Assembly: GCA_002295635.1 (NCBI GenBank) | Contig: DBHK01000027.1 | Span: 5,920-69,919 of the forward strand | Reading direction: 5' to 3' | DNA length: 64,000 nucleotides | Source of the DNA: Alphaproteobacteria bacterium UBA830 | Lineage (GTDB): Bacteria; Pseudomonadota; Alphaproteobacteria; MPNO01; UBA830 | In this document: in pieces, positions 7,582-28,695 of the stretch | Layout: every line of letters starts with the position of its first letter | Position numbering within the stretch: position 1 is the first letter of the stretch | Made by a program: the position numbers and the translations under genes | Notes under the pieces: model-generated | What the model saw: only the letters and a program-made list of their open reading frames with translations | Database searches by the model: none | Told to the model about the DNA's origin: nothing

Positions 7582-8049
7582 TCAGCGGGATTCGTAGAAA
7601 TTGATAAGTTTGACCACGTCTTCAGCCTGCATACGACCCAATGGGCCGTCACAGTAGCTAGATGCGATAACATTGTTATCAGGGCCGAGTATAAATTCGG
7701 ACGGCTGGATGATCTGACGGCGGTCCTCCCACCAAGATCCCAAAGCGTCCGCCATATCACGACTTACACCTTCGCCAACAGGGAAGTTAACTTCGTCAGC
7801 GACCTGACTCGATTCTTCTCCCGTGTCGATACTTGCTGCGACGACAGATACACCAATCTTATCTAGTTCTGCCTTTTGGTCTGAAAAGCCGACTAACTGT
7901 CGGCGACAGTAGGGTCACCAATGACCCCGGTAAAATAGAATAACCTTATATTTTGTATCGAGGCCTCTTGGAAGGTCCATCGAACCACCCCCGACAAGAC
8001 CGAGCGTCATGTCGGGGAATGCGTCGCCTATACCAAGTTTATCGGGCAT
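7582..8049 (-). CDS. Peroxiredoxin-like (AhpC/TSA/redoxin thioredoxin-fold) SELENOPROTEIN; in-frame UGA (7915-7917) decoded as Sec in a GHW-U-PYC redox motif
   Basis: AAGGAGG lies 5 nt upstream of the ATG at 8047-8049. The translation is MPDKLGIGDAFPDMTLGLVGGGSMDLPRGLDTKYKVILFYRGHW[U]PYCRRQLVGFSDQKAELDKIGVSVVAASIDTGEESSQVADEVNFPVGEGVSRDMADALGSWWEDRRQIIQPSEFILGPDNNVIASSYCDGPLGRMQAEDVVKLINFYESR, ending at the stop at 7582-7584. The UGA sits at the position of the N-terminal Cys of the W-C-P-x-C motif in Cys homologues. A hairpin follows 10 nt downstream. Confidence 0.8.
7888..7904 (-). promoter_or_regulatory. Candidate bacterial SECIS hairpin for the peroxiredoxin-like selenoprotein
   Basis: GCCGAC-AGUUA-GUCGGC (6-bp stem, G/U-containing loop) starts 10 nt 3' of the UGA. 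The palindrome CUGUCGCCGACAG overlaps it. Confidence 0.5.
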
Positions 8050-8175
8050 ACGTCCTCCTTTTTGTCAAATAATCGCGGCAAGTTTATACTTTAATAGCCA
8101 AACTATGCATGGTGGTGTTTTCCAAAGCAACGACATAGCTGGATGTCGCCAGTTAATTTTTCTTAATGCGGGATA

Positions 8176-9315
8176 TTACTCAGCTGCCGAGTTTATCCCA
8201 ATACTGTCCAGTATCTCCTTCTGCCGGCCAAATTCATCAATACCAATTTCTTTTCGAAGATCGGCACTCATCTCCGCTTTGTCGGCTTCCAATGGCGCAC
8301 CTGTAGCATCGGCCACACGATCGATGGCGTTGAAAAGAGCGGCTACGCCCGCAGAGTCAACTACTGCGTCGGGACCAAGGGCCTTAAGGATTTCCTGCCG
8401 GGCATTGGTAAGGCGAGGCCTATCTTCGCCGAGGATGGCCTCGGCGAATTCAATCATAAGTTCGCCGTATTCAATTCCGGTATTTCCCGCATCGGCGCCG
8501 CCGGTGATGGCATTATAGTCGAGATTGTTTCCAGAGTATTCGCTGCCCGCACGGAGCAGTACCGAGTGGCTAGTCGTTCAATAAGTACATTGATTGAGCG
8601 CCGATACTCGCGCTGCCAGCAATTCGATCTGCAGATGTGTGATTGCGCGAAACTCCTGAGTAAAATCTCGCATCTCGGGGCCGCTTAGATACTGCGCTGC
8701 GACCACGTCAAAGAACCCACGCGCCTCATCAGGTACTAAGGTAAGGGCTCGACGAATATTAGACTCCGGCCCTACAAAGTAATCTGCCTCATTCGGGCCA
8801 TATTCGTCCCAAGCTATGTTAGGTGACCACGCTTGGTGCTGACGTGCCTCAGCCGGGCGATAGTACGAAGGTTCACCGCTCTGGGCTTCTGGCAAAGCGC
8901 GGACTGGCACACCGATCCCATTAGCGAAGGTATCGATCGCGGTAGTATGAGCCACTATGCTGACGATTTCGACGAAGTGCGTTTCCAGAATACCGCTATC
9001 GATGGTTTTCTTGTACCACGTTTGTGTCAAACGACCTGGGTCCGCAACGATCAGATGGATCATATTTACCCAATTTTGGGGTAGGTCAGTCCCGGAATCG
9101 AAGGGTTCGGTAATAGAAAATGGTGATAGTGCTTCCCTGATTTTTGCGTAGCCGGGACAGTCCCGAGCGTGGCGCGCCTCCGCCATCACTTTGAGACGCT
9201 CCTCGCCTGTTAGCCAATTTCCCGCTTTAGATAATCTATCCCAAGCGCGTTGATGGGCTTCGACAATGTCTTCTCGAACGGAATAAGGCGAGTCATCGTA
9301 ATTGATGTTTGACAT
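8176..9315 (-). CDS. AhpD-like / carboxymuconolactone-decarboxylase-family SELENOPROTEIN; UGA at 8578-8580 read as Sec joins ORFs 8578..9315 and 8176..8457
   Basis: The upstream ORF ends ...RVSALNQCTY-TGA. Downstream the same frame is open with no stop for 134 codons, through the track ORF 8176..8457. The motif spanning the UGA is C-T-Y-U-T-T-S-H, which matches the AhpD catalytic C-x-x-C-x-x-x-H exactly. The downstream part carries the CMD C-terminal helix AALFNAIDRVADATG. Confidence 0.65.
8543..8559 (-). promoter_or_regulatory. Possible SECIS-like hairpin for the AhpD-like selenoprotein
   Basis: CUGCUC-CGUGC-GGGCAG (6-bp stem including one G-U pair, GU-containing loop) starts 18 nt 3' of the UGA. 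Confidence 0.3.
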
Positions 9316-10401: not shown

Positions 10402-12690
10402 TCAATTTCCGTTATCCCGCAATGCATTGCGGAGTCGATCAGGTGTAATAGGCAACTCTTTTATGGAGATACCGTGCGGACGAAGCGCCCGGGAAACCGC
10501 ATTGCTAACGGCGGCGGCAACGGCGACGATCCCGCCTTCACCTGCTCCCTTGAACCCCATCGGATTGAACTCTGATGGTGAATCCTCTAGCGCGATAGCT
10601 GTGATCTCCGGTAATTCAGACGTGGTTGGCAATAGGTAGTCTGCAAAGCTACCGGTCAGAAGCTGACCGTCAGTGTCATAGATAAAATGATCGAGGAACG
10701 TACCACCCAAGCCCTGGACTACGCCGCCAACCGCCTGACCCTGCACCAAAGCGGGATTGAGTGCCCGTCCAATCTCTTCAGTTAGCCAGTACCGTTCGAC
10801 CTCAACGACACCGGTTTCAATATCTACCGCGACCTGTGCCGCATGGGCGCCGTATGAATATGAGATACGTTTTTCATTATCAAAAATAGCATCGGCGGCC
10901 AGGGTTTCGCCCCGGTGTTCCGAGAAAGACGCTAGTTCCTGCAAGCTCAGTCTTTCGTTATATCTATACACTGCACCATCGCTATAACGCAGGTTTTCCG
11001 GGTCGCAGTTCCAGCGCAGCGCTGCAATGCCTACAGCATGGTCTTTCAGTAAATCGGCAGCGATACGCGTTGCATTGCCGGCCATTACAGTATTACGGCT
11101 GTGGAAAGTGCCACCGCCTGTTTTCACCAGCGTCGTGCTGCCGTGGAGAACCTGAACACGGGCGATATCAATATCTAGGTAATCAGCGCAAATCTGTGCA
11201 AGCCCTGTCTCGGTTCCCTGACCAACTGATGAAGCACCGGTACGAATGGTCACTGTGCCGTCTGACGTTGCGGTTATGTTTGCTGACTCCGGTGGTCCGG
11301 CGGCACTACTTTCGATAAAACATGCAATACCGAGGGCGCGAGCCCGACCATCCGAGTCTGGGACGTTGGTGGGCCAGTCCGTGTATCGGCATTCCTTCAA
11401 AAGCCGGTCTAGAGCAGCAGGATAATCGCCCTTATCCAACGTTGCCTCAGTGTCTCCCGGAACGAGCTCACCTATTTTGTATGGCAGATCCGCCGGGGTC
11501 ATCAGATTGCGTCGGCGCAGTTCTGCTGGATCGAGGTCTAGATCATCCGCCATCAGGTCTAAGAGACGTTCGCGGCAGAAATTAGCTTCAAAGCGACCCG
11601 GACCGCGGAATGTGCCCACTGGGGTTTTGTTGGTGATCAAAAACTGCACATCGCAGCTAAAAGAAGGTACCCGATATGGGCCTGGAAGAAACTGTGCGGC
11701 CTTCGACGGTACTACACCGCCATTGGTTCGAACATAGGCTCCCATGTCGCCCCGAACTGTTCCCCGCATACCGAGGATTTCGCCTGTCGCCGTCGCGGCT
11801 ATTTCAAGATCGCAGATGATATCGCGCGAATGGTTGGTTGCGGTCAGGTTTTCTCGCCGATCCTCGATCCATTTTACTGGACGTTCTGTACGCCTACTTG
11901 CAAGAGGAACCAGATAGTCCTCCGGATACAGTTCGCCGCGAGCACCGAAGCCGCCGCCTACATCCGTCTCGATTAGCTCGACGGAACTTTCAGGCATGTC
12001 AAACGCTTCTGCCAGATGCCGGCGATTGAAGAAATTAACCTTTGTGGCACCATGCAATCGTAATAAGGGTTTAGAGATATCGAATTCCGCGATCAGGCCG
12101 CGTGTCTCCATCGGTACGGCGCCGTGACGGTTGGTGATGAAGCGTTCATGCCGGGTATAGGCAGCCCCGTCGAACGCCTCTTTGGTGTTGCCGCGGCTAA
12201 CGGTGTAACGGGTTCCCATATTTTCGCCCGCTGCTTCGTGGATCAATATTTGTCCATCGAAAGCTTGATCAACGGTGGTCACAGCTGACAGCGGGTCAAA
12301 CTCGATCTCGATCAGTTCTAGAGCATCTTCTGCAACATAGCGGTCCTCAGCAATTACGACGGCAATTGGCTCACCTACATATCGCACTTTGTTGACCGCA
12401 ATCGGACATTGCAGAAATCTCTCGAAGCCGTCAAATGGAGCTAGCCTAAGAGGAATAGTCGGCAAATCATTCTCCATATCCGCAGCGCAGAATACGTCGA
12501 TTACCCCTTCAAGCGCACGCGCCGTATCGAGATTGATAGTCTTTATAAGAGCGTGAGCATGGGGACTGCGTAACACTGCCATAATTGCCATACCAGGCAG
12601 TTTGACGTCGTCAATATAGATACCCTCTCCAGTTAGTAAGCGTTGATCTTCCAGCCGCGAAACGGACTTTCCTATATATCTCCGGCTCAA
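10402..12690 (-). CDS. Xanthine dehydrogenase-family molybdopterin-binding large subunit (CoxL/CutL homologue, not a bona fide CO dehydrogenase)
   Basis: 762 aa. N-terminal a/b hammerhead and molybdopterin-binding domains. The active-site loop reads GTFRGPGRFEANF rather than the CoxL form I/II signatures. Confidence 0.85.
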   Translation of the reverse strand: MSRRYIGKSVSRLEDQRLLTGEGIYIDDVKLPGMAIMAVLRSPHAHALIKTINLDTARALEGVIDVFCAADMENDLPTIPLRLAPFDGFERFLQCPIAVNKVRYVGEPIAVVIAEDRYVAEDALELIEIEFDPLSAVTTVDQAFDGQILIHEAAGENMGTRYTVSRGNTKEAFDGAAYTRHERFITNRHGAVPMETRGLIAEFDISKPLLRLHGATKVNFFNRRHLAEAFDMPESSVELIETDVGGGFGARGELYPEDYLVPLASRRTERPVKWIEDRRENLTATNHSRDIICDLEIAATATGEILGMRGTVRGDMGAYVRTNGGVVPSKAAQFLPGPYRVPSFSCDVQFLITNKTPVGTFRGPGRFEANFCRERLLDLMADDLDLDPAELRRRNLMTPADLPYKIGELVPGDTEATLDKGDYPAALDRLLKECRYTDWPTNVPDSDGRARALGIACFIESSAAGPPESANITATSDGTVTIRTGASSVGQGTETGLAQICADYLDIDIARVQVLHGSTTLVKTGGGTFHSRNTVMAGNATRIAADLLKDHAVGIAALRWNCDPENLRYSDGAVYRYNERLSLQELASFSEHRGETLAADAIFDNEKRISYSYGAHAAQVAVDIETGVVEVERYWLTEEIGRALNPALVQGQAVGGVVQGLGGTFLDHFIYDTDGQLLTGSFADYLLPTTSELPEITAIALEDSPSEFNPMGFKGAGEGGIVAVAAAVSNAVSRALRPHGISIKELPITPDRLRNALRDNGN

Positions 12691-13175
12691 ATTGATACCC
12701 CGCCGCTGCGGCGTGCCGCCGCGTCCATAATTGCGTCAACAATTGATACGTACCCCGTACATCGGCAAATATTCCCAGAAATCGCACTTTCGACTTCGGC
12801 ACGGGTTGGTGTCGGGTTCTCGCCTAGGAAAGCTTCCGCAGTCGTTAACATCCCTGGAGTGCAGAAACCGCACTGCAGCGCATGGTTGTCGCGAAACGCC
12901 TCTTGAAGTGGAGACAGGTTCTCACCTTCGGCGAGACCTTCTACTGTTGTGATATCCATTTTGTGGGCTTGGACCGCAAAAATCAGACAAGACCGTATTG
13001 CCGCTCCATCAGCTATTACGGTGCAGGCGCCACACACGCCGTGTTCGCATCCCAGGTGTGTGCCCGTAAGATCTAGTTGTTCGCGCAGGCAATCGGCCAG
13101 TGACATGCGGGCGTCGACATCGCAGCTATACGAGGTGCCGTTTACTTTTAGAGATATGGCATGGCGGTTTGTCAC
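12687..13175 (-). CDS. (2Fe-2S)-binding small subunit of the molybdenum hydroxylase
   Basis: 162 aa. CEHGVCGACTV and CGFCTPGM cluster motifs. 4-bp overlap with the large subunit. Confidence 0.9.
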   Translation of the reverse strand: MTNRHAISLKVNGTSYSCDVDARMSLADCLREQLDLTGTHLGCEHGVCGACTVIADGAAIRSCLIFAVQAHKMDITTVEGLAEGENLSPLQEAFRDNHALQCGFCTPGMLTTAEAFLGENPTPTRAEVESAISGNICRCTGYVSIVDAIMDAAARRSGGVSI

Positions 13176-14041
13176 AGATTACGTTTCCAGGCTTCAGAGA
13201 GAGTTCGCTTTAGGAGGACTGCGGAAACTTCGCGCCGATATGCGATAGAGGCATGGATATCGTCGAATGGATCAATATCGGCATCAATGGTATCTGCGGA
13301 TTCTTTGAATAGGCCGAGGGAGGGTTCAGATCCCATTAGGGTGTTTTCCGCTCTGTGAAGACGAAGCGGTGTATCACCTGCCCCTATTGCTACGCATGCG
13401 CAGTTGGATATGGCGCCGCCGTCATTGATGTCAAACCAAGCTGCGACGCCCACTAGGGCAAAGTCGCCTTCCCGGCGGGAGATTTCTTTGAATCCCCAGT
13501 GACGTTGTGTCGGCCAGGGTGGAAAACAGATTTTTTCGATCAACTCACTACTGTCAGCGGCTGTCGTAAAAACGCCTTGAAAAAAGTCGACTGCAGGAAC
13601 AACCCGAGGGCCGGCCGGTCCGCGTAGGTGAATTTTTGCTTCACAAACTAAAGTAATTCCCGGCAATTCGGCTGCTGGATCCGCGTGAGCGACACTGCCA
13701 CCCAATGTGCCTCGGTTTCGGATTTGGAAATGAGCAATATGGGCTGCGGCTGCGGCCAGCAAGGGATTGTTCTTTTCGATGTCAGGATCTGTTTCAAGCC
13801 GGCGGGTACGTACCATGGGGCCGATTTCTAGGCCGCCATCTGGGCTTATCCGGATATCTGCGAGCTCGGAAACACCGTTAAGGTCAATAAGCGCGGACGG
13901 TGAAGCGACACGAAAGTTCATCATCGGTACGAGGCTTTGTCCGCCCGCAAGATATCGGGCGTCCTCACCATTCTCCCGCATCATAGCGATTGCGCCATCG
14001 ACACTATCTGCAGCAAAGTAGTTGAACTTAGATGGTTTCAT
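13172..14041 (-). CDS. FAD-binding medium subunit of the molybdenum hydroxylase (CoxM-like)
   Basis: 289 aa. FAD-binding region (YLAGGQSLVPMMNFRVASP). 4-bp overlap with the small subunit. Confidence 0.85.
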   Translation of the reverse strand: MKPSKFNYFAADSVDGAIAMMRENGEDARYLAGGQSLVPMMNFRVASPSALIDLNGVSELADIRISPDGGLEIGPMVRTRRLETDPDIEKNNPLLAAAAAHIAHFQIRNRGTLGGSVAHADPAAELPGITLVCEAKIHLRGPAGPRVVPAVDFFQGVFTTAADSSELIEKICFPPWPTQRHWGFKEISRREGDFALVGVAAWFDINDGGAISNCACVAIGAGDTPLRLHRAENTLMGSEPSLGLFKESADTIDADIDPFDDIHASIAYRREVSAVLLKRTLSEAWKRNL

Positions 14042-17332: not shown

Positions 17333-17428
17333 TGGCGGAAAAGAGTGGGAGTCGAACCCACCAGGGACGTCTAACGCCCCTCACCGGTTTTGAAGACCGG
17401 GCGCCCCACCGGGGAACGAATCTCTTCC
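17333..17428 (-). tRNA. selC: tRNA-Sec (anticodon UCA)
   Basis: 96 nt: GGAAGAGAUUCGUUCCCCGGUGGGGCGCCCGGUCUUCAAAACCGGUGAGGGGCGUUAGACGUCCCUGGUGGGUUCGACUCCCACUCUUUUCCGCCA. It has an 8-bp acceptor stem, a UCA anticodon in a CUUCAAA loop, a long variable arm and a GGUUCGACUCC T-arm. Its architecture is near-identical to E. coli selC. Confidence 0.85.
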
Positions 17429-17533
17429 GACGGTATACATGCATAGCAAATTCCTATGTTGGGTGACATGCCTATTGTACCAAATTCATTTTCTTCTAAA
17501 GAAACGACTTTTACCAATCTCTGAAGTTTGGCT

Positions 17534-19459
17534 TCAGTCTTTGTTGAAAGCCTCCTCTGCAGGACGGATTATCTCATGCCCGTCGCCTACGCGGCGGGTG
17601 AATTTGACCTTGTCAAAGAATTCTAAAACCTCGATAGATAGGTTCCGGCCTATTCCCGACGCGTCGCGAAAATTTGCTGCGGTCACCATGCCTTCGTCTG
17701 CGGATGCTGCCACTTTTTCCGCGATCTCGCCTAGCTGGCGCAGGGCATCTGGCTGATAAAATCGGTTTTTTGCTATTCGAATAACGAGACCGTGACGTCC
17801 TGCTCGAACCAGCAGAGACTCGATTTTACTAGGCTCTTTGTCGATTGCTTGCGCGATCTCAACAATAACTGGCGGTCGCAGTCCCCCATTGACTAGAAGC
17901 GGTTTTATTTTATTCCAATTCGAGGCGTCGGCCCCTTGCAGTTTTGGCTTATGCGACAGTAGCCGCACGCCCATACCTTCTTTGACTATGACACCTTCAC
18001 GCACCAGCTCAGCACAAATAGAAGCCGTCGCGTTGCCGGGTAGACGAAGACCTGTGCCCACCAGGATACGGTTCTCGCCAGGTCCAACCGTGTCGGGAGA
18101 TTTTTTATGCCAGGCGCCAAGAGCCTCTAAAACCGCGGTACGGAGGATGTCCCAGCGGTTATGGGAGAAACCTAGCAAGCCTTTCTCGGTTGATATCGAT
18201 TTAATTGGAACAAGCTCTTGTAGAGCCTCCATGTCGGAGTCGGTTAGATTGCGTGCTGAAGCGAAGCGGTCGAGGAAGAGACCTTCGGGTGAGGTTTCCA
18301 GCAAGGCAGTCAGTGCGATACCATCGTCTCCCTCCTCCATCGCTTTTAAGAAAGCTATACGCTCAGGTCTGGCCCGTCCTCGCGCAGGTGGGTAGACGTC
18401 TATGACGCGGCCGCCACCTATCGTTCGTTGCGCAGACTGATCACGAATTATTAACCCGTCACTATGAACCGCGGCCATAGGATGATCGAGTACAAGTTGC
18501 GCGAGCTTATTTTCGCCCGCCGCTATACTTTGCTCTCCAAGAATAGCGACCCGTCCGGTGGACTCTGATGCGCCGAGATGGACATGAACCGGGGTCCAGT
18601 GAGCAAGCGGCCGAGCTTCTGACTGAAGAACCTGAAGCCTTACATCTATTTTTCTTACTGCCGGAGGCGGATGGCCGGTAACGATCCAGTCGCCGCGCTG
18701 TATCAGCCGACTGTCGAGATCCGGCCCTGTAAGATTTAGCGCACAGCGTTGACCTGCGTGTCCGGCGTCGGTTTTTGCATTTTGCGCATGAAGGCCGCGC
18801 ACTCTAACGTCGATCTCTGCACCCAAGACCCGGGCGCCTGCGCCGGTTTTCAGATGACCGGAAAAGGCGGTGCCAGTAACCACAAGCCCTGCGCCGGTAA
18901 CCGCAAAGCATCGGTCGATGGCGAGCCGGAAATTTCCTGTCGACGCGCGTGGTGGCATCTGGGCTGCTGCATCGATGAGGTGTTGTTTTAAATCACTGAT
19001 CCCTTCGCCAGTTAGTCCAGATAGCGGGAAAACGGGAGCTCCATCTAGCGATGTACCGAGTAAAAGCTCGTCAATCTGCTCGGATACCTCGACGGCGCGC
19101 ATATCATCAACCCGGTCGATTTTGGTTAGGGCTACCGCGCCATCTGAAACGCCGAGCAAGTCGAGGATTGCTAGGTGTTCTCTGGTTTGCGGCATCGGTC
19201 CGTCGTCAGCGGCGACAGTGAGTAACGCGAAGTCGATACCGACTACGCCACATAACATATTACGAATAAATTTTTCGTGTCCGGGGACGTCTATAAACCC
19301 GATAGTTTCCGCTCCATCTATCGGAAGATAGGCGAAGCCAAGATCGATGGTCAGATTACGTTTCTTTTCTTCAGGCAGCCGATCGGTATCAACCCCGGTC
19401 AACGATTTTATTAGGAGGGTTTTACCGTGATCAACGTGGCCGGCTGTAGCAACAATCAT
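17534..19459 (-). CDS. selB: Selenocysteine-specific translation elongation factor SelB
   Basis: 641 aa. N-terminal MIVATAGHVDHGKTLLIKSLTGVDTDRLPEEKKRNLTIDLGFAY with GTPase G motifs. Long C-terminal winged-helix region. ATGA overlap with selA. Confidence 0.9.
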   Translation of the reverse strand: MIVATAGHVDHGKTLLIKSLTGVDTDRLPEEKKRNLTIDLGFAYLPIDGAETIGFIDVPGHEKFIRNMLCGVVGIDFALLTVAADDGPMPQTREHLAILDLLGVSDGAVALTKIDRVDDMRAVEVSEQIDELLLGTSLDGAPVFPLSGLTGEGISDLKQHLIDAAAQMPPRASTGNFRLAIDRCFAVTGAGLVVTGTAFSGHLKTGAGARVLGAEIDVRVRGLHAQNAKTDAGHAGQRCALNLTGPDLDSRLIQRGDWIVTGHPPPAVRKIDVRLQVLQSEARPLAHWTPVHVHLGASESTGRVAILGEQSIAAGENKLAQLVLDHPMAAVHSDGLIIRDQSAQRTIGGGRVIDVYPPARGRARPERIAFLKAMEEGDDGIALTALLETSPEGLFLDRFASARNLTDSDMEALQELVPIKSISTEKGLLGFSHNRWDILRTAVLEALGAWHKKSPDTVGPGENRILVGTGLRLPGNATASICAELVREGVIVKEGMGVRLLSHKPKLQGADASNWNKIKPLLVNGGLRPPVIVEIAQAIDKEPSKIESLLVRAGRHGLVIRIAKNRFYQPDALRQLGEIAEKVAASADEGMVTAANFRDASGIGRNLSIEVLEFFDKVKFTRRVGDGHEIIRPAEEAFNKD

Positions 19460-20859
19460 TCGAGAATTTCAAGAGTTGAAAGTTGTGAAAGGAATCCGGG
19501 TTCATCTGCCATACAGCGTAGATCAACGATGAAGGCACCTCCCTGAACGCGTCCAATAACTGGCACTGGCAGACCGCGAAAGGCCCGTACGAGTCGTTCA
19601 ACTGCCGCACCGTTCTTAGTTTCAGGAGTGATTGCGAGGCCCGCGCTAGGAAGTTTGCGGGTCGGTAATGTACCCGAACCGACTTGGCTGTCGCAGTCCA
19701 CCTCTTCGACTTTGGCAAACCCTTTTACGGCTCTAGAGATTGCAGGCCGAATCCGGGAGGCTGTTTCCTGAATATCAGTCACTGACCGGGTAAGCGCACG
19801 CAGCGTGGGCAATCGGTCGGATAGACTATCTGGATCGGAATAAAGACGAAGCACGGCGGATAACGCTGCGATAGTCATTTTGTCACAGCGTAGTGCTCGT
19901 TTTATGGGGTTGCTCTTTAAACGAGTGATGCAGTCTTTGGTACCAACGATGATACCTGCCTGCGGTCCACCCAATAGCTTGTCACCCGAAAATGATACCA
20001 TATCGGCACCGTGCTTTAGGGCTTCCATTGGAGTTGGTTCATGTGGAAGTCCAAGCCGCTTTAGTTCCGTCAGAGTGCCGCTGCCCAGATCGATGGCAAA
20101 TGGAATTCCAGTCTCATGACACAGCTTGGCGAGATCAGTTTCCGGCACCTCCGCGGTGAATCCTTCTACTACATAGTTACTGGTATGGACCTTCATGATC
20201 ATTCCGGTATTCGGTCCGATAGCTGCGGCATAATCCTTTAAATGGGTCCGGTTGGTGGTGCCAACCTCGACCAGTTCACATCCTGACTGTGCCATAATAT
20301 CCGGCATACGGAACGAACCCCCGATCTCTATTAACTCTCCTCGAGATGTAGGTGTTTCCTTACCAAGTGCGAAGGTATTGAGGATCAACATAACTGCCGC
20401 GGCATTATTATTGACGACGGTTGCCGCCTCAGCACCGGTGATTTCACAAAGCTGTGCCTCGACATGGTCATCCCGGTCTCCGCGCTTTCCTTCTTCCAAA
20501 CTATACTCGAGGTTGGTTGCGCTGCGCGCCGCCCGGGAGATGGCTTCAATAGCTTCCTCCGGAAGCGCCGCGCGACCCAAGTTCGTATGAATGACCGTTC
20601 CTGTTAGATTATAGACTGGTCGGAGAGACGGCAAATTCTCCTGCGCCAGACACTCCGCCACTGCATACAATATCTCTGTTTCGTGCGGTATCTTGTTACC
20701 GGAAAGCACAGAACCGCGAATTTCTTCTAGCGTCTTTCGGATGCAATCCGTTACTAATTTGCGGCCATATTCCGAAATCAGCTTCACGGCATTATCCGAA
20801 TTCAACAGGCGATCAACAGACGACAGGCCCGCAAGAGGCGAAGAGGTTTTCTTTGGCAT
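19456..20859 (-). CDS. selA: L-seryl-tRNA(Sec) selenium transferase SelA
   Basis: PLP-dependent. LAGLSSVDRLLNSDNAVKLISEYGRKLVTD aligns with the E. coli SelA N-terminus. Start placed at MPKKTSS. An alternative upstream start at 20937 would abut the prfC stop. Confidence 0.85.
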   Translation of the reverse strand: MPKKTSSPLAGLSSVDRLLNSDNAVKLISEYGRKLVTDCIRKTLEEIRGSVLSGNKIPHETEILYAVAECLAQENLPSLRPVYNLTGTVIHTNLGRAALPEEAIEAISRAARSATNLEYSLEEGKRGDRDDHVEAQLCEITGAEAATVVNNNAAAVMLILNTFALGKETPTSRGELIEIGGSFRMPDIMAQSGCELVEVGTTNRTHLKDYAAAIGPNTGMIMKVHTSNYVVEGFTAEVPETDLAKLCHETGIPFAIDLGSGTLTELKRLGLPHEPTPMEALKHGADMVSFSGDKLLGGPQAGIIVGTKDCITRLKSNPIKRALRCDKMTIAALSAVLRLYSDPDSLSDRLPTLRALTRSVTDIQETASRIRPAISRAVKGFAKVEEVDCDSQVGSGTLPTRKLPSAGLAITPETKNGAAVERLVRAFRGLPVPVIGRVQGGAFIVDLRCMADEPGFLSQLSTLEILE

Positions 20860-20938
20860 GACCGTGAGACAATACTGCTTGAAACGGTGTTGGGAAATGT
20901 CTTGTTGAAACGTGGTAGCAGGGAGAATACCAAACACC

Positions 20939-22543
20939 CTATTGTGTCTGTTCCTTGGTCTTCAGAAATTTGATGTCAGGCCACTCTTTCACAGCGTTGT
21001 CTAAATGCCACGTGTTTCGGGCGAGGAAAACCGGCATTGAGTCATGATCATCTGCGATGGAACTGCCATTGTTATCTAGGAATTTTTTCAGAAGACTGGT
21101 ATCGTTTGCTTCAACCCAGCGCGCAGTATGGAGAGAGGTTGCCTCAAACTTTACCGGTACATCGTATTCCGAACGTATACGGTCTGCCATAACATCAAAT
21201 TGAAGCGCTCCTAAGACACCGACGATCCAGTCCGTTCCGATGCGTGGCTTAAATACCCGGGCCACGCCTTCTTCTGCCAATTGTTGTAGCGCTCGGCCAA
21301 GATGTTTGGCACGCATCGGATCCGCCGGATGTACCGAGCGCAGTATTTCAGGTGCGAAGCTTGGGATGCCTGTGAAGCGCAATTCTTCACCATCTGTCAA
21401 AGCATCACCGATCCGCAGATTTCCATGATTTGGGATGCCAATGATGTCACCTGCATATGCATCTTCAGCGGTCTCCCGATCCTGCGCGAGGAATAACATC
21501 GGGTTGTGCAAATTTATTTGTTTACCACTTCGAATATGACGCAGCTTCATGCCTCTCTTGAAATGTCCCGATGATAGTCGAAAGAATGCAATTCGGTCGC
21601 GATGCTTTGGATCCATGTTCGCCTGAATCTTGAATACGAAACCACTGACTTTGTTTTCCTCAGGGTCGACGACACGCTCTTTTGCATTTTGTGGACGTGG
21701 GGGTGGTGCGAGGGACACAAGACCTTTCAGCAATTCTCGGACACCAAAATTATTAATAGCACTGCCGAAGAATACTGGGCTGAGCGAGCCGTCACGATAG
21801 GACTGTAAATCGAGTGGTGGGCAAAGGCCGGTCGCCATCGGTACCTCTTCGCGAAGCTTTTCTACTGCATGACCGGGTAATAGAGCGTCGAGTTTTGGAT
21901 CGTCGACGCCCTCACATATAATATCCTCACCAGGATCATTCGAGATCTTGCCGCTAGCGTGACCTTTTTTCATCAGCACCACCCTGCCGTCAATCACGTC
22001 GTAACAGCCGAGAAAATCCCGTCCCATACCGATCGGCCAGCTTGCAGGCGTTACATCAAGGGCGAGTGTTTCCTCGATTTCTTGTAACAGTTCGAATGGT
22101 TCCTGTGCCTCTCGATCCATCTTATTAATAAAGGTGATGATCGGCATATCCCTCAAGCGACAGACTTCGAACAGTTTCCGAGTCTGTGCTTCGATCCCAC
22201 GTGCTGCATCTATCACCATTACTGCCGAGTCGACAGCTGAAAGTGTCCGGTATGTATCTTCCGAAAAGTCTTCGTGACCAGGTGTATCCAGTAGGTTGAA
22301 GGTGCAGCCGCCAAATTCATATGTCATAACAGATGATGCTACCGAGATGCCCCTTTCTGCCTCGACTTTCATCCAGTCGGAATGTGCGCGCCTAGCCTCG
22401 CCCCGCGCCTTAACGGCACCGGCAGTCTGAATTGCTCCACCGAACAACAAAAGTTTCTCGGTCAGAGTCGTTTTACCCGCATCCGGGTGGGAGATAATGG
22501 CGAATGTTCGCCGGGCGGCAATTTCGCCGCTGTTTATGCCCAT
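20939..22543 (-). CDS. prfC: Peptide chain release factor 3 (RF3)
   Basis: RRTFAIISHPDAGKTTLTEKLLLFGGAIQTAG ... FKIQANMDPKHRDRIAFFR, closely matching E. coli RF3. Start trimmed to MGINSGEIAARR. Confidence 0.9.
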   Translation of the reverse strand: MGINSGEIAARRTFAIISHPDAGKTTLTEKLLLFGGAIQTAGAVKARGEARRAHSDWMKVEAERGISVASSVMTYEFGGCTFNLLDTPGHEDFSEDTYRTLSAVDSAVMVIDAARGIEAQTRKLFEVCRLRDMPIITFINKMDREAQEPFELLQEIEETLALDVTPASWPIGMGRDFLGCYDVIDGRVVLMKKGHASGKISNDPGEDIICEGVDDPKLDALLPGHAVEKLREEVPMATGLCPPLDLQSYRDGSLSPVFFGSAINNFGVRELLKGLVSLAPPPRPQNAKERVVDPEENKVSGFVFKIQANMDPKHRDRIAFFRLSSGHFKRGMKLRHIRSGKQINLHNPMLFLAQDRETAEDAYAGDIIGIPNHGNLRIGDALTDGEELRFTGIPSFAPEILRSVHPADPMRAKHLGRALQQLAEEGVARVFKPRIGTDWIVGVLGALQFDVMADRIRSEYDVPVKFEATSLHTARWVEANDTSLLKKFLDNNGSSIADDHDSMPVFLARNTWHLDNAVKEWPDIKFLKTKEQTQ

Positions 22544-22698
22544 TGATGAGTCCAAAAAACTTTTTAGCACTATCCGCGCCGACTCGATGCAATATAAGGC
22601 TGTTTTATCGTAATTCCAGTACAGCTTGCCTGTCGCCATGCTAATCTCTGGCGTTTAGGATAGGTGGGAAGGATGGCAAAAATAGGGAGGGCGGGTCG

Positions 22699-24009
22699 AT
22701 GGAAATGCAGACCGCCACCAAGGTTGGTTACCAGTCTGGTTTCGGAAATGAATTTGCGACCGAAGCACTACCCGGTGCATTACCGGAGGGTCGGAATTCT
22801 CCACAGAAAACGCCGTACGGCCTTTATACGGAACTGATCAGCGGTACAGCCTTTACACAGCCTCGTAACGATAATCTACGGACTTGGCTCTACCGGATAC
22901 GGCCATCGTCTCAGCACGGAAAATTCAAGAAGATTGATAAAAAATTATGGCGCACCCCTACCTTTGATGAAGGAGTGTTGACGCCACAGCAAATACGTTG
23001 GGATCCAATACCTATCCCGGCGGAAGCAACAGATTTGATCGCCGGCATAAAGACCTTGGCGGGTAATGGAGATTCTAAAATCCAATCGGGGATCGGTATC
23101 CACGTTTATTGCGCAAACGTCTCGATGAGTGATCGCTATTTCTACAATGCCGATGGGGAGATGCTGTTCGTTCCCCAGCAGGGCTGCTTGCGACTCGTAA
23201 CAGAAATGGGTGTAGTTGAGGTGGTGCCAGGCCAGATTGCAGTGGTGCCCCGAGGGATAAGATTCTGCGTCGGCCTACCAAATGGGCCATCGCGCGGTTA
23301 TGTATGCGAAAACTTTGGAGCGCCCCTACGACTACCCGATCTCGGACCTATCGGATCTAATGGTCTTGCCAATCCCCGGGATTTTCTTGCACCGGTAGCG
23401 TCGTTTGAAGATCTTGATGGTGATTTTGAACTTGTCGTAAAATTTGGGGGAGATCTCTGGGCTTCTGATATCGACCATTCGCCTTTAGATGTCGTTGCAT
23501 GGCACGGAAATTTGACACCATATAAGTATGATCTCGATAATTTCATGTCTATCGGGTCTATATCCTTCGATCACCCAGACCCGTCTATCTTCACTGTGCT
23601 TACGTCTCCATCTGGCCCGGCAGGGCTGGCCAATGTAGACTTCGTCATTTTTCCGCCACGGTGGCTGGTTGCGGAAAATACCTTCCGGCCACCCTGGTAT
23701 CACCGCAACTTTATGTCGGAATTCATGGGATTGGTGCACGGTCATTACGACGCCAAAGAGGAGGGCTTTGTGCCTGGGGGGGCCAGCTTACACAATATGC
23801 ATTCCGCTCACGGACCTGATCGAGAGACCTATGAAAAGGCGACAAAGTCTGATTTGAAACCGATGCATTTAGCAGACACGATGGCTTTTATGTTTGAGAC
23901 CCGCTATCCGATCAAGTTGACGGAATGGGGTGCGAATGTCCCCCAGATCCAACCGGATTATCAAGATTGCTGGCAAGGACTAAGTAAAAACTTCGACGGG
24001 AAAAGATAA
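22699..24009 (+). CDS. hmgA: Homogentisate 1,2-dioxygenase
   Basis: 436 aa. The N-terminal [19 protein letters not shown] motif is diagnostic of homogentisate 1,2-dioxygenase. Confidence 0.9.
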
Positions 24010-24011
24010 TA

Positions 24012-25334
24012 ATGACGATTCTTAATGAAACCCACGACCCTGCGCTTAATAGCTGGGTTAATAGCGCAAATGAGAATGGCTCCGACTTTCCAGTACAGAA
24101 TCTACCCTTTGGCGTGTACACGGACCCTCAAACTGATGCGGGCAAAATAGGTATTGCCATTGGCGATATGATTTTAGATGTAACGGCCGCCCGGATAGAG
24201 GGCCTAATCAGCGGCGCTGCAGATGATGCTGCGGGGGCCTGTGCCGGCGATACCCTTAACCATTTGATGGCGCTGGGTGGTCGGCACTGGTCGGCGCTGC
24301 GCGCGGCCGCATCTAAAGTATTGCGAAACGATACGGATGAGGGCGAGATCGCTAGAACGGTCGCCGAGGATATTCTTGTTTCTCAGTCCGATGTTGCAAT
24401 GCAACTACCGGCTCGGATAGGAGATTATACCGATTTCTATTCATCGATCTTTCATGCGACTAATGTCGGAAAAATGCTCCGGCCGGATAATCCGTTAATG
24501 CCGAATTATAAATATATCCCTGTTGCTTACCATAGCCGGGCGTCGTCGATTGTTCCAAGCGGCGAAGTATGTAAGCGCCCAGTAGGTCAAACCAAGGCGG
24601 CGGATTTGGATGCACCTTCCTTTGGCCCTTCGAGGGCGATCGATTACGAGACTGAGATCGGGTTTTTCATCGGCCCTGGCAATCCGCTGGGCCAGCCTAT
24701 CGATATATCCGAGGCAGAAGATCATATTTTCGGCCTATGTATCTTGAACGATTGGTCCGCTCGAGACATACAAGCATGGGAATACCAGCCTCTAGGGCCA
24801 TTTCTTGCCAAAAGCTTCTCGTCGCATATATCGCCTTGGGTGGTGACGATGGAGGCCTTATCGCCGTTCCGTTGTGCTGCTTATGAGCGTCCGGAATCCG
24901 ACCCCAACCCGTTACCTTACCTATCGTCAGCAGAGAATGAGACTAAAGGTGGATTCGATGTCCACATCGAAGTATCGATCGCATCGGAACAGATGCGGGA
25001 TGCCGGCATGAGTCCCCATCTTTTGGCGAAGACCAACATGCGTCATCTTTATTGGAATGTTTTCCAAATGTTAGTTCACCATACCTCTAACGGATGCAAC
25101 ACGCGGCCCGGTGACATGATGGGGACCGGAACGATATCGGGGCCGAATAAGGATTCTCTTGGATCGATCTTGGAAATCACCAAGCGTGGTTCTGAGCCGG
25201 TGCCTTTACCATCCGGCGAGGAGCGCAAATTCCTTGCCGATGGCGATGAGGTGATCATGCGGGCCTGGTGCGAGGCCGAGGGGTCGCGGCGAATCGGATT
25301 CGGCGATTGCCGCGGATTAATTGAGGGTGCTTAG
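24012..25334 (+). CDS. fahA: Fumarylacetoacetase
   Basis: 440 aa. N-terminal FAA-hydrolase domain (FPVQNLPFGVY) followed by the catalytic FAH domain. Placed immediately downstream of hmgA. Confidence 0.9.
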   Translation: MTILNETHDPALNSWVNSANENGSDFPVQNLPFGVYTDPQTDAGKIGIAIGDMILDVTAARIEGLISGAADDAAGACAGDTLNHLMALGGRHWSALRAAASKVLRNDTDEGEIARTVAEDILVSQSDVAMQLPARIGDYTDFYSSIFHATNVGKMLRPDNPLMPNYKYIPVAYHSRASSIVPSGEVCKRPVGQTKAADLDAPSFGPSRAIDYETEIGFFIGPGNPLGQPIDISEAEDHIFGLCILNDWSARDIQAWEYQPLGPFLAKSFSSHISPWVVTMEALSPFRCAAYERPESDPNPLPYLSSAENETKGGFDVHIEVSIASEQMRDAGMSPHLLAKTNMRHLYWNVFQMLVHHTSNGCNTRPGDMMGTGTISGPNKDSLGSILEITKRGSEPVPLPSGEERKFLADGDEVIMRAWCEAEGSRRIGFGDCRGLIEGA

Positions 25335-25806: not shown

Positions 25807-25898
25807 GGATGAGCCCTTAGGAAAATTCTTATCTACCGGTTATGGGGTAGTGCTCACCTGTATGTTAGTCTTTGCGCCATCGAACAATGGGGATCTAT

Positions 25899-28211
25899 AT
25901 GATCGGAGAACGGATAAAACGCATCGAAGATCCAGCGCTATTGCGCGGTGCAGCTATTTTCGTGGACGACATACATTTACCGGGAATGCTGCACGTAGCA
26001 TTCCTGCGTAGCCCCCATCCGCATGCAAAGATCCAATCGATCGATGCAAGGGCGGCGAATGCAATGTCCGGTGTTAAAGCAGTATATACGCTGGCCGACT
26101 TATCGCCGCATTTGCAAATGGATCGTCTTCCCCTCCAATTCCCAACAACAGCATTCCGCCCTGATGTAACCCCCTGGGTACTGGCGGGTGAAGAGGTGTG
26201 CCATGTTGGAGAGGCCATCGCTATGGTTGTTGCCGATACACGTTACATTGCGGAAGACGCGGTAACAGTGATTGAGGTGGACTACGACCCGCTACCGTCC
26301 GTCGCAGGCTGTGCAGCGGCGTTCTTGGAAGATGCCCCACGGGTGCATGATGATCAGGATGACAATGTTTTGCTGCGGTTCGGGCAATCCTACGGTAATG
26401 CTAGCGCGGCATTCGCAAATGCACCTCATGTCTTTTGCGAACGCTTTATACAGCACCGGGGCGCTGCTCATCCGATAGAGGGACGCGGCGCGGTGGCGCG
26501 CTACGATGTCTTGAATGATTCCACAACATTGTGGTCGTCAACCCAGATGTCGCATGAAGTAAGGTCGGCAATAGTCCAAATGTTTGGGGTAGATGAAGGG
26601 CGTATCCGAGTTGTTGCACCGGATGTCGGCGGTGGTTTCGGGTCAAAATTTATTGCTTATTCGGAAGAAGTCTTGATTGCGCTGGCCGCTCGCCTTCTGG
26701 ACACCCCAATAAAATGGATTGAGGACAGGCGTGAACATTTTACATCAGCGATCCAAGAGCGTGAACAGGACTGGACGATGGAAATCGCCGTTGATGATGA
26801 AGGCCGTATTCTCGGCGTACGCGGTTCCATGCTGTCAGACCAAGGCGCGTATACCCCACAAGGTGTAAATATGGCGTATAATGCGTCGACTGGGGTGCCT
26901 GGCCCCTACATAGTGCCAAACTACGAAATTGATGTGCATGTTATTGAGACTAACGCGGTCGCGGCGGCGCCGGTAAGAGGCGCTGGCTATCCTGAGGGTA
27001 ATTATACGATGGAGCGCCTTCTGGACCGTGTAGCACAAGGGCTTGACCTTGATCGAGCAGAAATCAGGCGGCGTAATCTAATCCCTGCGGAGAAGATGCC
27101 TTACGAAACACCTCTAAAGACCCGTGCCGGGTCGCCGGTGATGGCTGACAGTGGCGATTTTTTGAAATGCCAACAGATCGCGTTAGATCGCATTGACTAT
27201 GCTGGATTTTCAAAACGCCAGATAGCGGCGCGTATGGAGGGAAGGTATCTCGGTATTGGTCTTGCAAACAGCCTGAAAGGAACAGGGCGCGGACCTTTCG
27301 AGTCCGGAGCTGTCCGGATTGAGCGGTCTGGAAAAGTGCGGGTATTTACCGGCGCGCTTGCGATGGGGCAGGGGCTAAAAACCATGCTTGCGCAGGTGAC
27401 ATCTGAGCAGCTCGGTATTCCGGCAGACGAAATAGAAGTTATAGCCGGAGATACCGGCACGATTGCACTTGGGCTTGGCGGATTTGCTAGCCGCCAGACC
27501 GTCACGGCTGGATCATCAGTCCATGGTGCAGCTAAAGAGGTCCGCGGAAAGCTACTAAAAATGGCAGCGCATTTATTGGAAGCTGCCGAAGAAGATCTAG
27601 AGATTTCCGACAGCGTTGTTCGGGTAATCGGCTCAGATGTAAATATATCGGTCCGGGAAATAGCGGAAGCTAGCTCTGGTGCACCAGGATATTCTATGCC
27701 TGGCGGTATCGAACCAGGTCTTGAGGCATCGGAAAACTTCAAGCCGCCAGCTTTGACCTATAGTAACGGAGTACAGGCGGTCGAGGTTGAAGTGGACATT
27801 GGTACCGGCGAGGTCAGGTTTTTGAATTACGTCGTAGTTAGCGATTGCGGGACGTTGATCAACCCCATGATAGTTGATGGACAGATCGCCGGCGGGGTGG
27901 TCCATGGAATAGGTAACGCGTTGTTCGAATGGATGGGTTATGATGATAGTGGGCAACCGCTTACCACAAATTTTGGTGAGTACACCATGCCTACCGCTAC
28001 TGAGCTTATCGAACTAGATTTACAGTATCAGCATTCGCCGACACCGTTGAACCCGCTTGGCGTGAAGGGTGTGGGAGAGACTGGGACGGTGCCGGCTGCT
28101 GCTGCCATCGTGTCAGCTGTTGAAAATGCGCTAGAGCCATTTGGAGCACGGATTACCGATTATCCGGTTATGCCCTCATCGATCGTGAACATCGTGCGAG
28201 CGGCCGGATGA
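25899..28211 (+). CDS. Xanthine dehydrogenase-family molybdopterin-binding large subunit (orphan; no adjacent small/medium subunits)
   Basis: Start at MIGERIKRIEDPALLRG, by alignment with the first large-subunit gene. Molybdopterin-binding domains are present, including the PVRGAGYPEG loop. Confidence 0.85.
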   Translation: MIGERIKRIEDPALLRGAAIFVDDIHLPGMLHVAFLRSPHPHAKIQSIDARAANAMSGVKAVYTLADLSPHLQMDRLPLQFPTTAFRPDVTPWVLAGEEVCHVGEAIAMVVADTRYIAEDAVTVIEVDYDPLPSVAGCAAAFLEDAPRVHDDQDDNVLLRFGQSYGNASAAFANAPHVFCERFIQHRGAAHPIEGRGAVARYDVLNDSTTLWSSTQMSHEVRSAIVQMFGVDEGRIRVVAPDVGGGFGSKFIAYSEEVLIALAARLLDTPIKWIEDRREHFTSAIQEREQDWTMEIAVDDEGRILGVRGSMLSDQGAYTPQGVNMAYNASTGVPGPYIVPNYEIDVHVIETNAVAAAPVRGAGYPEGNYTMERLLDRVAQGLDLDRAEIRRRNLIPAEKMPYETPLKTRAGSPVMADSGDFLKCQQIALDRIDYAGFSKRQIAARMEGRYLGIGLANSLKGTGRGPFESGAVRIERSGKVRVFTGALAMGQGLKTMLAQVTSEQLGIPADEIEVIAGDTGTIALGLGGFASRQTVTAGSSVHGAAKEVRGKLLKMAAHLLEAAEEDLEISDSVVRVIGSDVNISVREIAEASSGAPGYSMPGGIEPGLEASENFKPPALTYSNGVQAVEVEVDIGTGEVRFLNYVVVSDCGTLINPMIVDGQIAGGVVHGIGNALFEWMGYDDSGQPLTTNFGEYTMPTATELIELDLQYQHSPTPLNPLGVKGVGETGTVPAAAAIVSAVENALEPFGARITDYPVMPSSIVNIVRAAG

Positions 28212-28608: not shown

Positions 28609-28695
28609 GCGGACGTGGTGGAATTGGTATACACAACAGACTTAAAATCTGTCGGTCGCAAGGCCATGCGGGTTCAAGTCCCGCCGTCCGCACCA
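28609..28695 (+). tRNA. tRNA-Leu (anticodon UAA)
   Basis: GCGGACGUGGUGGAAUUGGUAUACACAACAGACUUAAAAUCUGUCGGUCGCAAGGCCAUGCGGGUUCAAGUCCCGCCGUCCGCACCA. Long variable arm, 7-bp acceptor stem, GGUUCAAGUCC T-arm, encoded CCA. Confidence 0.9.

Follow-up and report, generated by a model that had tools for sequence, protein, structure and literature searches.

The selC gene of E. coli lies apart from selAB and forms a transcript by itself. Contiguous selA-selB-selC operons occur among Alpha- and Betaproteobacteria as well as Gammaproteobacteria/Pseudomonadales, commonly with selD unlinked, and operons of this kind with a neighbouring selenoprotein gene are known in Alphaproteobacteria (Zhang et al. 2006, Genome Biol 7:R94, PMC1794560). 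A tight selB-selC linkage is attributed to some Alphaproteobacteria, where selC is nested in or overlaps selB (Mukai 2021, PMC8124441, as summarised in PMC13188914). Among the products of Sec decoding, AhpD-like and Prx-like 1 proteins belong to the selenoproteins found in greatest abundance in the sea, as catalogued in the GOS selenoproteome (Zhang & Gladyshev 2008, PMC2398784).

Here we describe a 64-kb stretch of DNA from an uncultured marine alphaproteobacterium (hereafter the window) in which selA, selB and a tRNA-Sec gene all lie on the minus strand. Tara-type ocean metagenomes contain identical contigs, as does the NCBI MAG GCA_002937455.1. The sequence shows what each of the three parts is, that all are intact and that their order is conserved, and we hold with high confidence that they make up a standard bacterial Sec-decoding operon in the order selA-selB-selC. 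The arrangement is already known, as this order has been on record in Alphaproteobacteria since 2006 and both selenoprotein families encoded nearby were catalogued in 2008.

The genes selA, selB and selC

The tRNA-Sec gene, selC, occupies 17333..17428 on the minus strand and is 96 nt long, including an encoded G73-CCA. ARAGORN called a tRNA-SeC with anticodon tca at exactly 17333-17428, and the Rfam model RF01852 matched with 75.7 bits (gathering score 47, E 9.8e-14) over its full length (1-91), this being the best of the overlapping matches at the locus within a clan that includes the generic tRNA model. The minimum free energy fold, which ends in a GCCA tail, contains an 8-bp acceptor stem, a 5-bp T stem and an 8-bp variable arm, and the cmscan alignment adds a 6-bp D stem with one bulged U and a 4-nt loop, CGGU. 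The gene thus shows the 13-bp acceptor/T helix (8+5), the long variable arm and the G73 discriminator that characterize RF01852. Covariation across 31 related tRNA-Sec genes supports this fold, with compensatory changes on both sides in 14 of 32 pairs, a covariation score that was reached by none of 500 shuffles, and 97.5% of alignment cells paired versus 47–58% when the partners were slid. The eighth acceptor pair, A-U in the window, is A-U, G-C or G-U in 16 of 28 distinct relatives and mismatched in the other 12. In ten related loci where ARAGORN reported no tRNA-Sec, Rfam at its gathering threshold found none either. We also considered selC as the attachment site of an integrated island and rejected this: a search allowing up to 3 mismatches showed the tRNA 3′ end to be present once only, no integrase was found, and the closest relatives keep synteny downstream of selC.

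The selA gene encodes a 467-aa L-seryl-tRNA(Sec) selenium transferase (19456..20859, minus strand) that scores 580.5 bits against the NCBIfam equivalog TIGR00474 (cut-off 268) and matches the Pfam families SelA and Se-cys_synth_N, the latter an N-terminal tRNA-binding domain. The protein aligns end-to-end with E. coli SelA (8uzw, 474 bits), and in this alignment its PLP-lysine motif, FSGDKLLGGPQAG, is identical to that of the E. coli enzyme. The open frame reaches back to a GTG at 20937 (ORF 19456-20937), and the earlier note had taken selA to extend that far. The GTG is simply the earliest start that this frame allows, 1 nt past the prfC stop, and lies some 78 nt too far upstream. The start in public gene calls on identical contigs is ATG 20859 (giving 467 aa), and from this codon residue 4 aligns with residue 4 of E. 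coli SelA. The selA start is therefore most likely ATG 20859.

The selB gene (17534..19459, minus strand) encodes a 641-aa selenocysteine-specific elongation factor with a score of 425.5 bits against the NCBIfam equivalog TIGR00475 (cut-off 242), whereas the next-best models, among them EF-Tu, IF-2 and eIF2-gamma, reach at most 134 bits and stay far under their own cut-offs. The GTPase motifs GHVDHGKT, DVPGH and TKID are present in the translation. Pfam assigns GTP_EFTU, GTP_EFTU_D2, Beta-barrel_SelB and SelB-wing_3 (48 bits), with SelB-wing_2 slightly below threshold (19.6 bits, cut-off 22.3). The protein aligns over its full length with E. coli SelB (5lzb, 438 bits; query 1-629 against chain 1-604), such that residues ~360-629 fall on the E. 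coli winged-helix domains up to residue 604 of 614, and near the C-terminus the two proteins share a strongly conserved stretch, FRD..G.GR...I..LE.FD...FTRR. SelB thus carries the full C-terminal winged-helix extension and is predicted to bind SECIS elements.

The selA stop codon TGA and the selB start codon ATG overlap as ATGA at 19456..19459 on the minus strand, as can be read in the sequence (...CTCGAATGATTGTT...), and selC follows 105 nt downstream of the selB stop codon (17534-17536). No promoter for selC and no terminator were predicted in the selB-selC interval, and given this short spacing selC is probably co-transcribed with selA and selB, although prediction gave no promoter or terminator evidence that delimits selA-selB-selC as a transcription unit. 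Contiguity on a single strand marks the proteobacterial selA-selB-selC operon (PMC1794560), and the same order is seen in most of 80 related loci from other species. In a table of these loci inspected by eye, selA lies directly upstream of selB in most of them, and a tRNA-Sec gene shortly downstream of selB in approximately two-thirds. The earlier note's description of SelA, SelB and a 96-nt tRNA-Sec as three consecutive minus-strand elements, with selA and selB joined by an ATGA overlap, is borne out by the concordance of ARAGORN, Rfam, NCBIfam and the E. coli alignments and by the overlap seen at 19459-19456.

Two neighbouring selenoprotein genes

Two genes with in-frame UGA codons lie on the same strand as selABC, 8 kb from selC. 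The first (8176..9315, minus strand) encodes, upon read-through of the Sec codon TGA at 8578-8580, a 379-aa AhpD-related selenoprotein with a CTYU motif (CxxU), which scores 437 bits against NF041238, ‘alkylhydroperoxidase-related (seleno)protein’ (cut-off 175). The second (7582..8049, minus strand; Sec codon TGA 7915-7917) reads through into a 155-aa Prx-like 1 protein with the sequence W-U-P-Y-C (UxxC), which with U replaced by C matches Pfam AhpC-TSA with 69.7 bits and also Redoxin. The UGA is in frame in six orthologues of the AhpD-related gene, with the protein sequence conserved on both sides, and is conserved in three orthologues of the Prx-like 1 gene, so that all nine orthologous copies from seven genomes retain it.

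Each UGA is followed by a SECIS-like hairpin with a GU within its loop, and both hairpins are conserved. In the AhpD-related gene the hairpin (8543..8559, minus strand) has a 6-bp stem and a CGUGC loop and starts at the 22nd nucleotide, counting the U of UGA as 1; it is kept in all orthologues, with one compensatory and two one-sided changes and no pair broken. In the Prx-like 1 gene the hairpin (7888..7904, minus strand) follows the UGA after a 10-nt spacer and consists of a 6-bp GCCGAC/GUCGGC stem with an AGUUA loop, in which one pair alternates between A-U, U-A and G-U across orthologues. The Sec trait is recognized by at least one in-frame-UGA gene with a SECIS-type hairpin, and the window contains two. 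The earlier note had judged both genes credible, and the conservation of UGA and hairpin together with the AhpC-TSA and NF041238 matches upholds that judgement. A window-wide scan for TGA codons in a redox-type context with the frame open on both sides returned 96 sites, among which long, homology-supported frames flank the codon on both sides only in these two genes.

By analogy with the well-studied E. coli system, SerRS would load tRNA-Sec with serine, and SelA, a predicted PLP enzyme, would convert Ser-tRNA(Sec) into Sec-tRNA(Sec) with selenophosphate supplied by a SelD encoded elsewhere. SelB-GTP would hold Sec-tRNA(Sec) through its EF-Tu-like domains, while its C-terminal winged-helix domains would bind the hairpin that follows the in-frame UGA immediately on its 3′ side and so deliver Sec to the ribosome. 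The ATGA overlap would couple translation of selA and selB, and the AhpD-related (CxxU) and Prx-like 1 (UxxC) proteins would be the local clients of the operon.

Absent partners and alternative readings

SelD is the component of the complete Sec trait (selA, selB, selC, selD and a selenoprotein) that we did not find in the window or its flanks. A tblastn search of the window with E. coli SelD (E ≤ 10) gave a best E-value of 0.83, Pfam detected no AIRS domain in approximately 50 ORFs of the window that were scanned, and no selD is present among the genes called on a 527-kb metagenome contig up to ~6.7 kb beyond the left end of the window and ~8.5 kb beyond its right end. The same ~50 ORFs contain no formate dehydrogenase-type molybdopterin domain, the only molybdenum enzymes in the window being of the xanthine-dehydrogenase/CoxL type, and no Grd domain of glycine reductase. 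The window thus lacks the neighbouring Sec-formate dehydrogenase gene of the proteobacterial selA-selB-selC plus fdhA operon (PMC1794560). These searches agree with the earlier note, which had reported selD, formate dehydrogenase and glycine reductase as missing from the window. Its further statement that the cluster proves decoding of UGA as Sec is too strongly worded for a sequence analysis in which no selD came to light. Its suggestion that Sec serves mainly small redox proteins goes further than 64 kb of a multi-Mb genome can support, and one of the two clients is 379 aa long. We infer that SelD is encoded elsewhere in the genome.

The missing selD, together with the splitting of both client genes at UGA by public gene callers (one into 245 and 93 aa, the other left as a 44-aa stub), could alternatively indicate a decaying relic, in which selD and Sec insertion have been lost and the genes with in-frame UGA survive as pseudogenes or in truncated form. 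We consider this very improbable. All three of selA, selB and selC are intact and score as full-length equivalogs, the protein downstream of each UGA is conserved (44–65% overall identity) in orthologues that all retain the codon, and an identical SelB sequence occurs on 23 contigs from many samples, which points to a thriving population. Absence of a linked selD is also ordinary: many bacteria that decode Sec carry the gene at a separate place (PMC1794560), and in most of the related loci that we examined none was detected close to selB. Still more remote is a misidentification of the machinery itself, with the tRNA a class II tRNA for Ser or Leu and the GTPase a paralogue of EF-Tu or IF2; we found nothing in its favor, give it next to no weight and reject it. 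The anticodon is UCA, two independent methods call the tRNA Sec and neither Ser nor Leu, and Rfam retained the tRNA-Sec model. The acceptor stem is 8 bp and the T stem 5 bp long; the earlier note had named a Ser or Leu assignment with a 7-bp acceptor stem as the outcome that would refute it. EF-Tu and IF-2 models score 57–126 bits on the GTPase, far under their cut-offs, against 425 bits for SelB, and its last ~280 residues, at the C-terminus, can be aligned to the E. coli SelB winged-helix domains, which also settles the earlier note's claim of a SelB with a C-terminal extension in its favor.

The gene upstream of selA raises a different possibility. This gene, prfC (20939..22639, minus strand; NF001964, 742 bits), encodes release factor 3 and belongs to the context of the cluster, outside the Sec machinery. 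Because it shares the strand of selA, is separated from the selA ATG by 79 nt, and the spacer holds neither a predicted terminator nor a stable hairpin, prfC-selA-selB-selC could form one functional unit in which co-expressed RF3 tunes termination versus Sec insertion at UGA. A SECIS-like or terminator structure in this spacer was considered separately and rejected, as its fold is no better than that of shuffled sequences (z = +0.78). In the closest relatives prfC also lies upstream of selA (L005-L009, L011 and L021 only), with inserts of 0–4 kb between the two genes, but the linkage was detected neither in L010, whose SelB is 66% identical, nor in any more distant locus. The gap widens to ~4 kb in L005, L007, L008 and L021, and in L005 it contains unrelated oxidoreductase genes on the opposite strand. 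In addition, partial conservation of the ~45 nt ahead of the selA ATG suggests a promoter belonging to selA itself. A prfC-containing functional unit is thus improbable, and the standard selA-selB-selC operon remains our preferred reading.

Comparison with known systems and implications

The cluster resembles the proteobacterial operon (PMC1794560) in gene order, strand, the selA/selB overlap, the position of selC just downstream, the presence of a selenoprotein gene nearby and the unlinked selD. It differs in that AhpD-related and Prx-like 1 genes, rather than fdhA, encode the nearby selenoproteins, and in that they are set apart from selC by 8 kb rather than adjacent to it as in L010 and L012. 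Compared with E. coli, homology extends over the full length of both SelA (474 bits against 8uzw) and SelB (438 bits against 5lzb), and tRNA-Sec is of the same 8/5 type, whereas selC follows selB after 105 nt and no SECIS-like hairpin was detectable upstream of selA in the window. With the nested selC genes of some Alphaproteobacteria (PMC8124441, in the summary given by PMC13188914) the window shares its phylum-level group and a tight selB-selC linkage, but its selC is a separate gene past the selB stop and is not nested. The client genes resemble the GOS pair (PMC2398784; NF041238) in both families, in the UxxC and CxxU motifs and in their adjacency to each other. Unlike the GOS pair, they are seen in full genomic context, on the strand of selABC and 8 kb from it, and the AhpD-related protein is of the long (~360–380 aa) NF041238 type.

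Other loci bring the clients closer to the machinery, with selABC(D) adjoining at least one of the two client genes in L010, L012, L028, L029, L040, L045 and L070; such co-localization may mark a functional or mobile unit, or synteny that is drifting. We speculate, with considerable doubt, that some marine Alphaproteobacteria have inherited, and perhaps transferred, selA-selB-selC (selD being included or not) together with the AhpD-related and Prx-like 1 genes as a cassette in which these clients stand in the place of fdhA, and that in the lineage of the window prfC is perhaps co-transcribed with selAB. Were this so, peroxide-defence clients would fill the position of fdhA in the classical proteobacterial cassette. 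The ingredients of such a cassette, selABC operons that include a client gene as well as pairs of Prx-like and AhpD-like genes, are already in the literature, and the cluster opens no new question.

Its main value lies in annotation: judging from sequence, UGA would be dual-purpose in an abundant ocean bacterium, and the two neighbouring genes that callers split should accordingly be annotated as full-length selenoproteins. The locus joins others from aerobic marine bacteria in which peroxide and thiol redox proteins, and not formate dehydrogenase, are the known Sec clients, in agreement with the GOS survey of 2008 (PMC2398784).

The Sec-insertion genes and the search for selD

ARAGORN detects two tRNAs in the window, a tRNA-Leu with a UAA anticodon (28609-28695, plus strand) and a tRNA-SeC with anticodon tca (17333-17428, minus strand), the latter a full-length match to the Rfam tRNA-Sec model RF01852 (75.7 bits, gathering score 47; E = 9.8e-14). 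Folded by itself, this 96-nt sequence has acceptor and T stems of 8 bp (GGAAGAGA/UCUUUUCC, including one G-U pair) and 5 bp, a 5-bp anticodon stem whose loop carries UCA, and an 8-bp variable arm, leaving the GCCA tail unpaired; in the cmscan alignment the D stem comprises 6 bp, with a single bulged U, and closes a 4-nt loop. These features amount to the 8/5 architecture of bacterial tRNA-Sec, and the agreement of ARAGORN, RF01852 and the fold bears out the earlier note, which had recognized tRNA-Sec by its UCA anticodon and 8-bp acceptor stem. The predicted fold is supported by an alignment of 31 tRNA-Sec genes located downstream of selB in related genomes: 97.5% of its cells are paired, as opposed to 47–58% with partners slid, 14 of 32 pairs have changed on both sides, and none of 500 shuffles reached the observed values. 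The eighth acceptor pair (alignment columns 9/87) is A-U in the window and A-U or G-C across the window and its alphaproteobacterial relatives, and is not universal, since 12 of 28 distinct related sequences have a G-G or G-A mismatch there.

SelB (17534-19459, minus strand; 641 aa) clears the cut-off of the NCBIfam equivalog TIGR00475 (425.5 bits, cut-off 242) and lies far under those of the EF-Tu, IF-2 and eIF2-gamma models. Pfam assigns it GTP_EFTU, GTP_EFTU_D2, Beta-barrel_SelB and SelB-wing_3 domains, with SelB-wing_2 slightly under threshold. Residues 1-629 align to chain residues 1-604 of the solved E. coli SelB (5lzb; 438 bits). The alignment runs into the winged-helix extension, where a segment close to the C-terminus is strongly conserved, so the extension that had been claimed for this protein is present. 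The selA ORF (19456-20937, minus strand) scores 580.5 bits on TIGR00474 (cut-off 268), aligns with E. coli SelA (8uzw) at 474 bits with the PLP-lysine motif FSGDKLLGGPQAG conserved, and has an N-terminal Pfam Se-cys_synth_N domain. Its first possible start is a GTG at 20937, one base past the prfC stop codon; from the ATG at 20859, the start in public gene calls on identical contigs, it encodes 467 aa that align with E. coli SelA from residue 4. The previously described ATGA, in which the selA stop overlaps the selB start, is read directly at 19459-19456, implying that the two genes are probably translationally coupled. Promoter prediction found none ahead of selC on its strand, and the selB–selC interval contained no terminator, so the simplest reading is that selC would be co-transcribed with selB.

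The cluster had been called complete, which holds for selA, selB and selC, but the pathway also needs selD, which was not seen. Pfam searches covering ~50 of the window's ORFs detected no AIRS (SelD), formate dehydrogenase-type molybdopterin or Grd domains, and when the entire window was searched by tblastn for E. coli SelD (from NC_000913.3) the best E value was 0.83, consistent with the claimed absence of selD, formate dehydrogenase and glycine reductase. The probe is sensitive enough, since it readily found selD in ~25 related loci. On a 527-kb metagenome contig containing the window, SelD was likewise not found in the ~6.7 kb that flank it on the left or the ~8.5 kb on the right. We infer that selD lies elsewhere in the genome. 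The earlier note's suggestion that Sec serves mainly small redox proteins reaches further than 64 kb of sequence allows, and formate dehydrogenase or other selenoproteins may also be encoded beyond the window. The only two molybdoenzymes in the window are both xanthine-dehydrogenase/CoxL-type hydroxylases, one at 10402-14041 (minus strand), between selC and the selenoprotein genes and with FAD and 2Fe-2S subunits, the other at 25872-28211 (plus strand). Selenium in a labile cofactor is known from some enzymes of this family.

Two selenoprotein clients

Two client genes, with one in-frame TGA each, lie on the minus strand 8–9 kb beyond selC. The Prx-like 1 gene (7582-8049; 155 aa) reads ...FYRGHW-U-PYC... 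and, with U changed to C, matches Pfam AhpC-TSA at 69.7 bits, in agreement with the GOS survey class ‘Prx-like 1, UxxC, pfam00578’ (PMC2398784). The AhpD-related gene (8176-9315; 379 aa) reads ...NQCTY-U-TTSH... and scores 437 bits (cut-off 175) on NCBIfam NF041238, ‘alkylhydroperoxidase-related (seleno)protein’. Orthologues of one or both, at 44–65% identity, adjoin selABC(-selD) in seven other genomes (comparison loci L010, 8262-9347; L012, 8136-8597; L028, 11055-12765; L029, 10642-12352; and L040, L045 and L070, ~10.4–12.7 kb), which suggests a recurrent neighbourhood of Sec machinery and client genes; in the window the two are 8 kb apart, with catabolic genes in between.

All client orthologues retain the TGA, and the protein is conserved on both sides of it. 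Both UGAs are followed by a conserved 6-bp hairpin with a GU-containing 5-nt loop, after a 10-nt spacer in Prx-like 1 and, in the AhpD-related gene, starting at the 22nd nt with the U of UGA taken as the first; in each hairpin one pair has changed in a compensatory way and none is broken. The hairpins are credible bacterial SECIS elements, and the retained TGA, family matches and hairpins together make both genes credible as genuine selenoprotein genes, as the earlier note had judged them. A window-wide scan gave no further convincing Sec candidates. In public calls on identical contigs, the AhpD-related gene is broken at the UGA into 245 + 93 aa, and the only consistent call for the Prx-like gene is a 44-aa N-terminal stub, to which one record, L088, adds a 57-aa fragment. 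Both genes are thus split at the UGA, and the public records are misannotated there (window 7582-9315, minus strand, equivalent to 20145-21545 in L001/L002 and 4830-6230 in L087/L088).

Related loci and the prfC neighbour

Twenty-three contigs read from ocean metagenomes carry the exact SelB sequence, and a contig of NCBI assembly GCA_002937455.1 also includes the window sequence. The closest species representatives, MAGs labelled Alphaproteobacteria, Rhodospirillaceae or similar, have SelB identities of 66–79%. Among 80 loci from other species, tallied by table inspection, selA is directly upstream of selB in most, roughly two thirds have a tRNA-Sec downstream of selB, at ~10–500 nt, and selD is within a few kb in ~25, none of them among the window's closest relatives. 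Ten selA-selB loci (L014, L016, L018, L019, L020, L022, L023, L026, L033 and L067) have no tRNA-Sec within ~6 kb by ARAGORN or at the Rfam gathering threshold; their selC is either elsewhere or non-canonical, for which the selC nested in selB reported from Alphaproteobacteria is a comparison.

The gene for release factor 3, prfC (20939-22639, minus strand), stops 79 nt short of the selA ATG, on its upstream side, a proximity that could be read as one unit with the Sec machinery. We treat it instead as lineage-specific synteny, because prfC precedes selA only in the closest relatives, several of which have ~4 kb between the two genes (filled in L005 by unrelated opposite-strand genes), because the spacer has no significant or stable RNA structure, and because the selA ATG is preceded by ~45 nt that are partly conserved among three relatives (window 20860-20905, minus strand; L006 ~850-888; L009 ~4540-4582), reading …CATTTCCCA..ACG.TT.AAGC.GTATT.T.T…. 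This conservation hints that selA may have its own promoter or leader. Divergent from prfC are homogentisate 1,2-dioxygenase and fumarylacetoacetase genes (22699-25334, plus strand), whose role in tyrosine/phenylalanine catabolism fits an aerobic heterotroph lifestyle.

Known systems and the proposed mechanism

Every part of the cluster passes the curated models that routine annotation uses, and public assemblies already contain the sequence; the selA-selB-selC finding is correct and already known. Sec-decoding Alpha- and Betaproteobacteria and Pseudomonadales have been described as having similar selA-selB-selC operons next to a selenoprotein gene, fdhA, with selD evolving independently (Zhang et al. 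2006, PMC1794560). The most abundant marine selenoprotein families include AhpD-like (CxxU) and Prx-like 1 (UxxC), members of which have also been reported as a neighbouring pair (Zhang & Gladyshev 2008, PMC2398784); a 2026 review (PMC13188914) restates these points and gives NF041238 as a known selenoprotein family. The window differs only in client type, its clients being peroxide/thiol redox proteins rather than fdhA, and in its separate selC, unlike the selC nested in selB as cited in that review (Mukai 2021). Beyond the identity and intactness of the parts, the conserved gene order and the clients' conserved UGA and hairpin, which are shown here, enzyme activities can be proposed by homology with the established E. 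coli system (summarised in PMC1794560): SerRS would serylate tRNA-Sec, SelA would turn the serine into Sec with selenophosphate supplied by SelD, and SelB-GTP would deliver Sec-tRNA(Sec) where ribosomes pause at a UGA followed by a hairpin.
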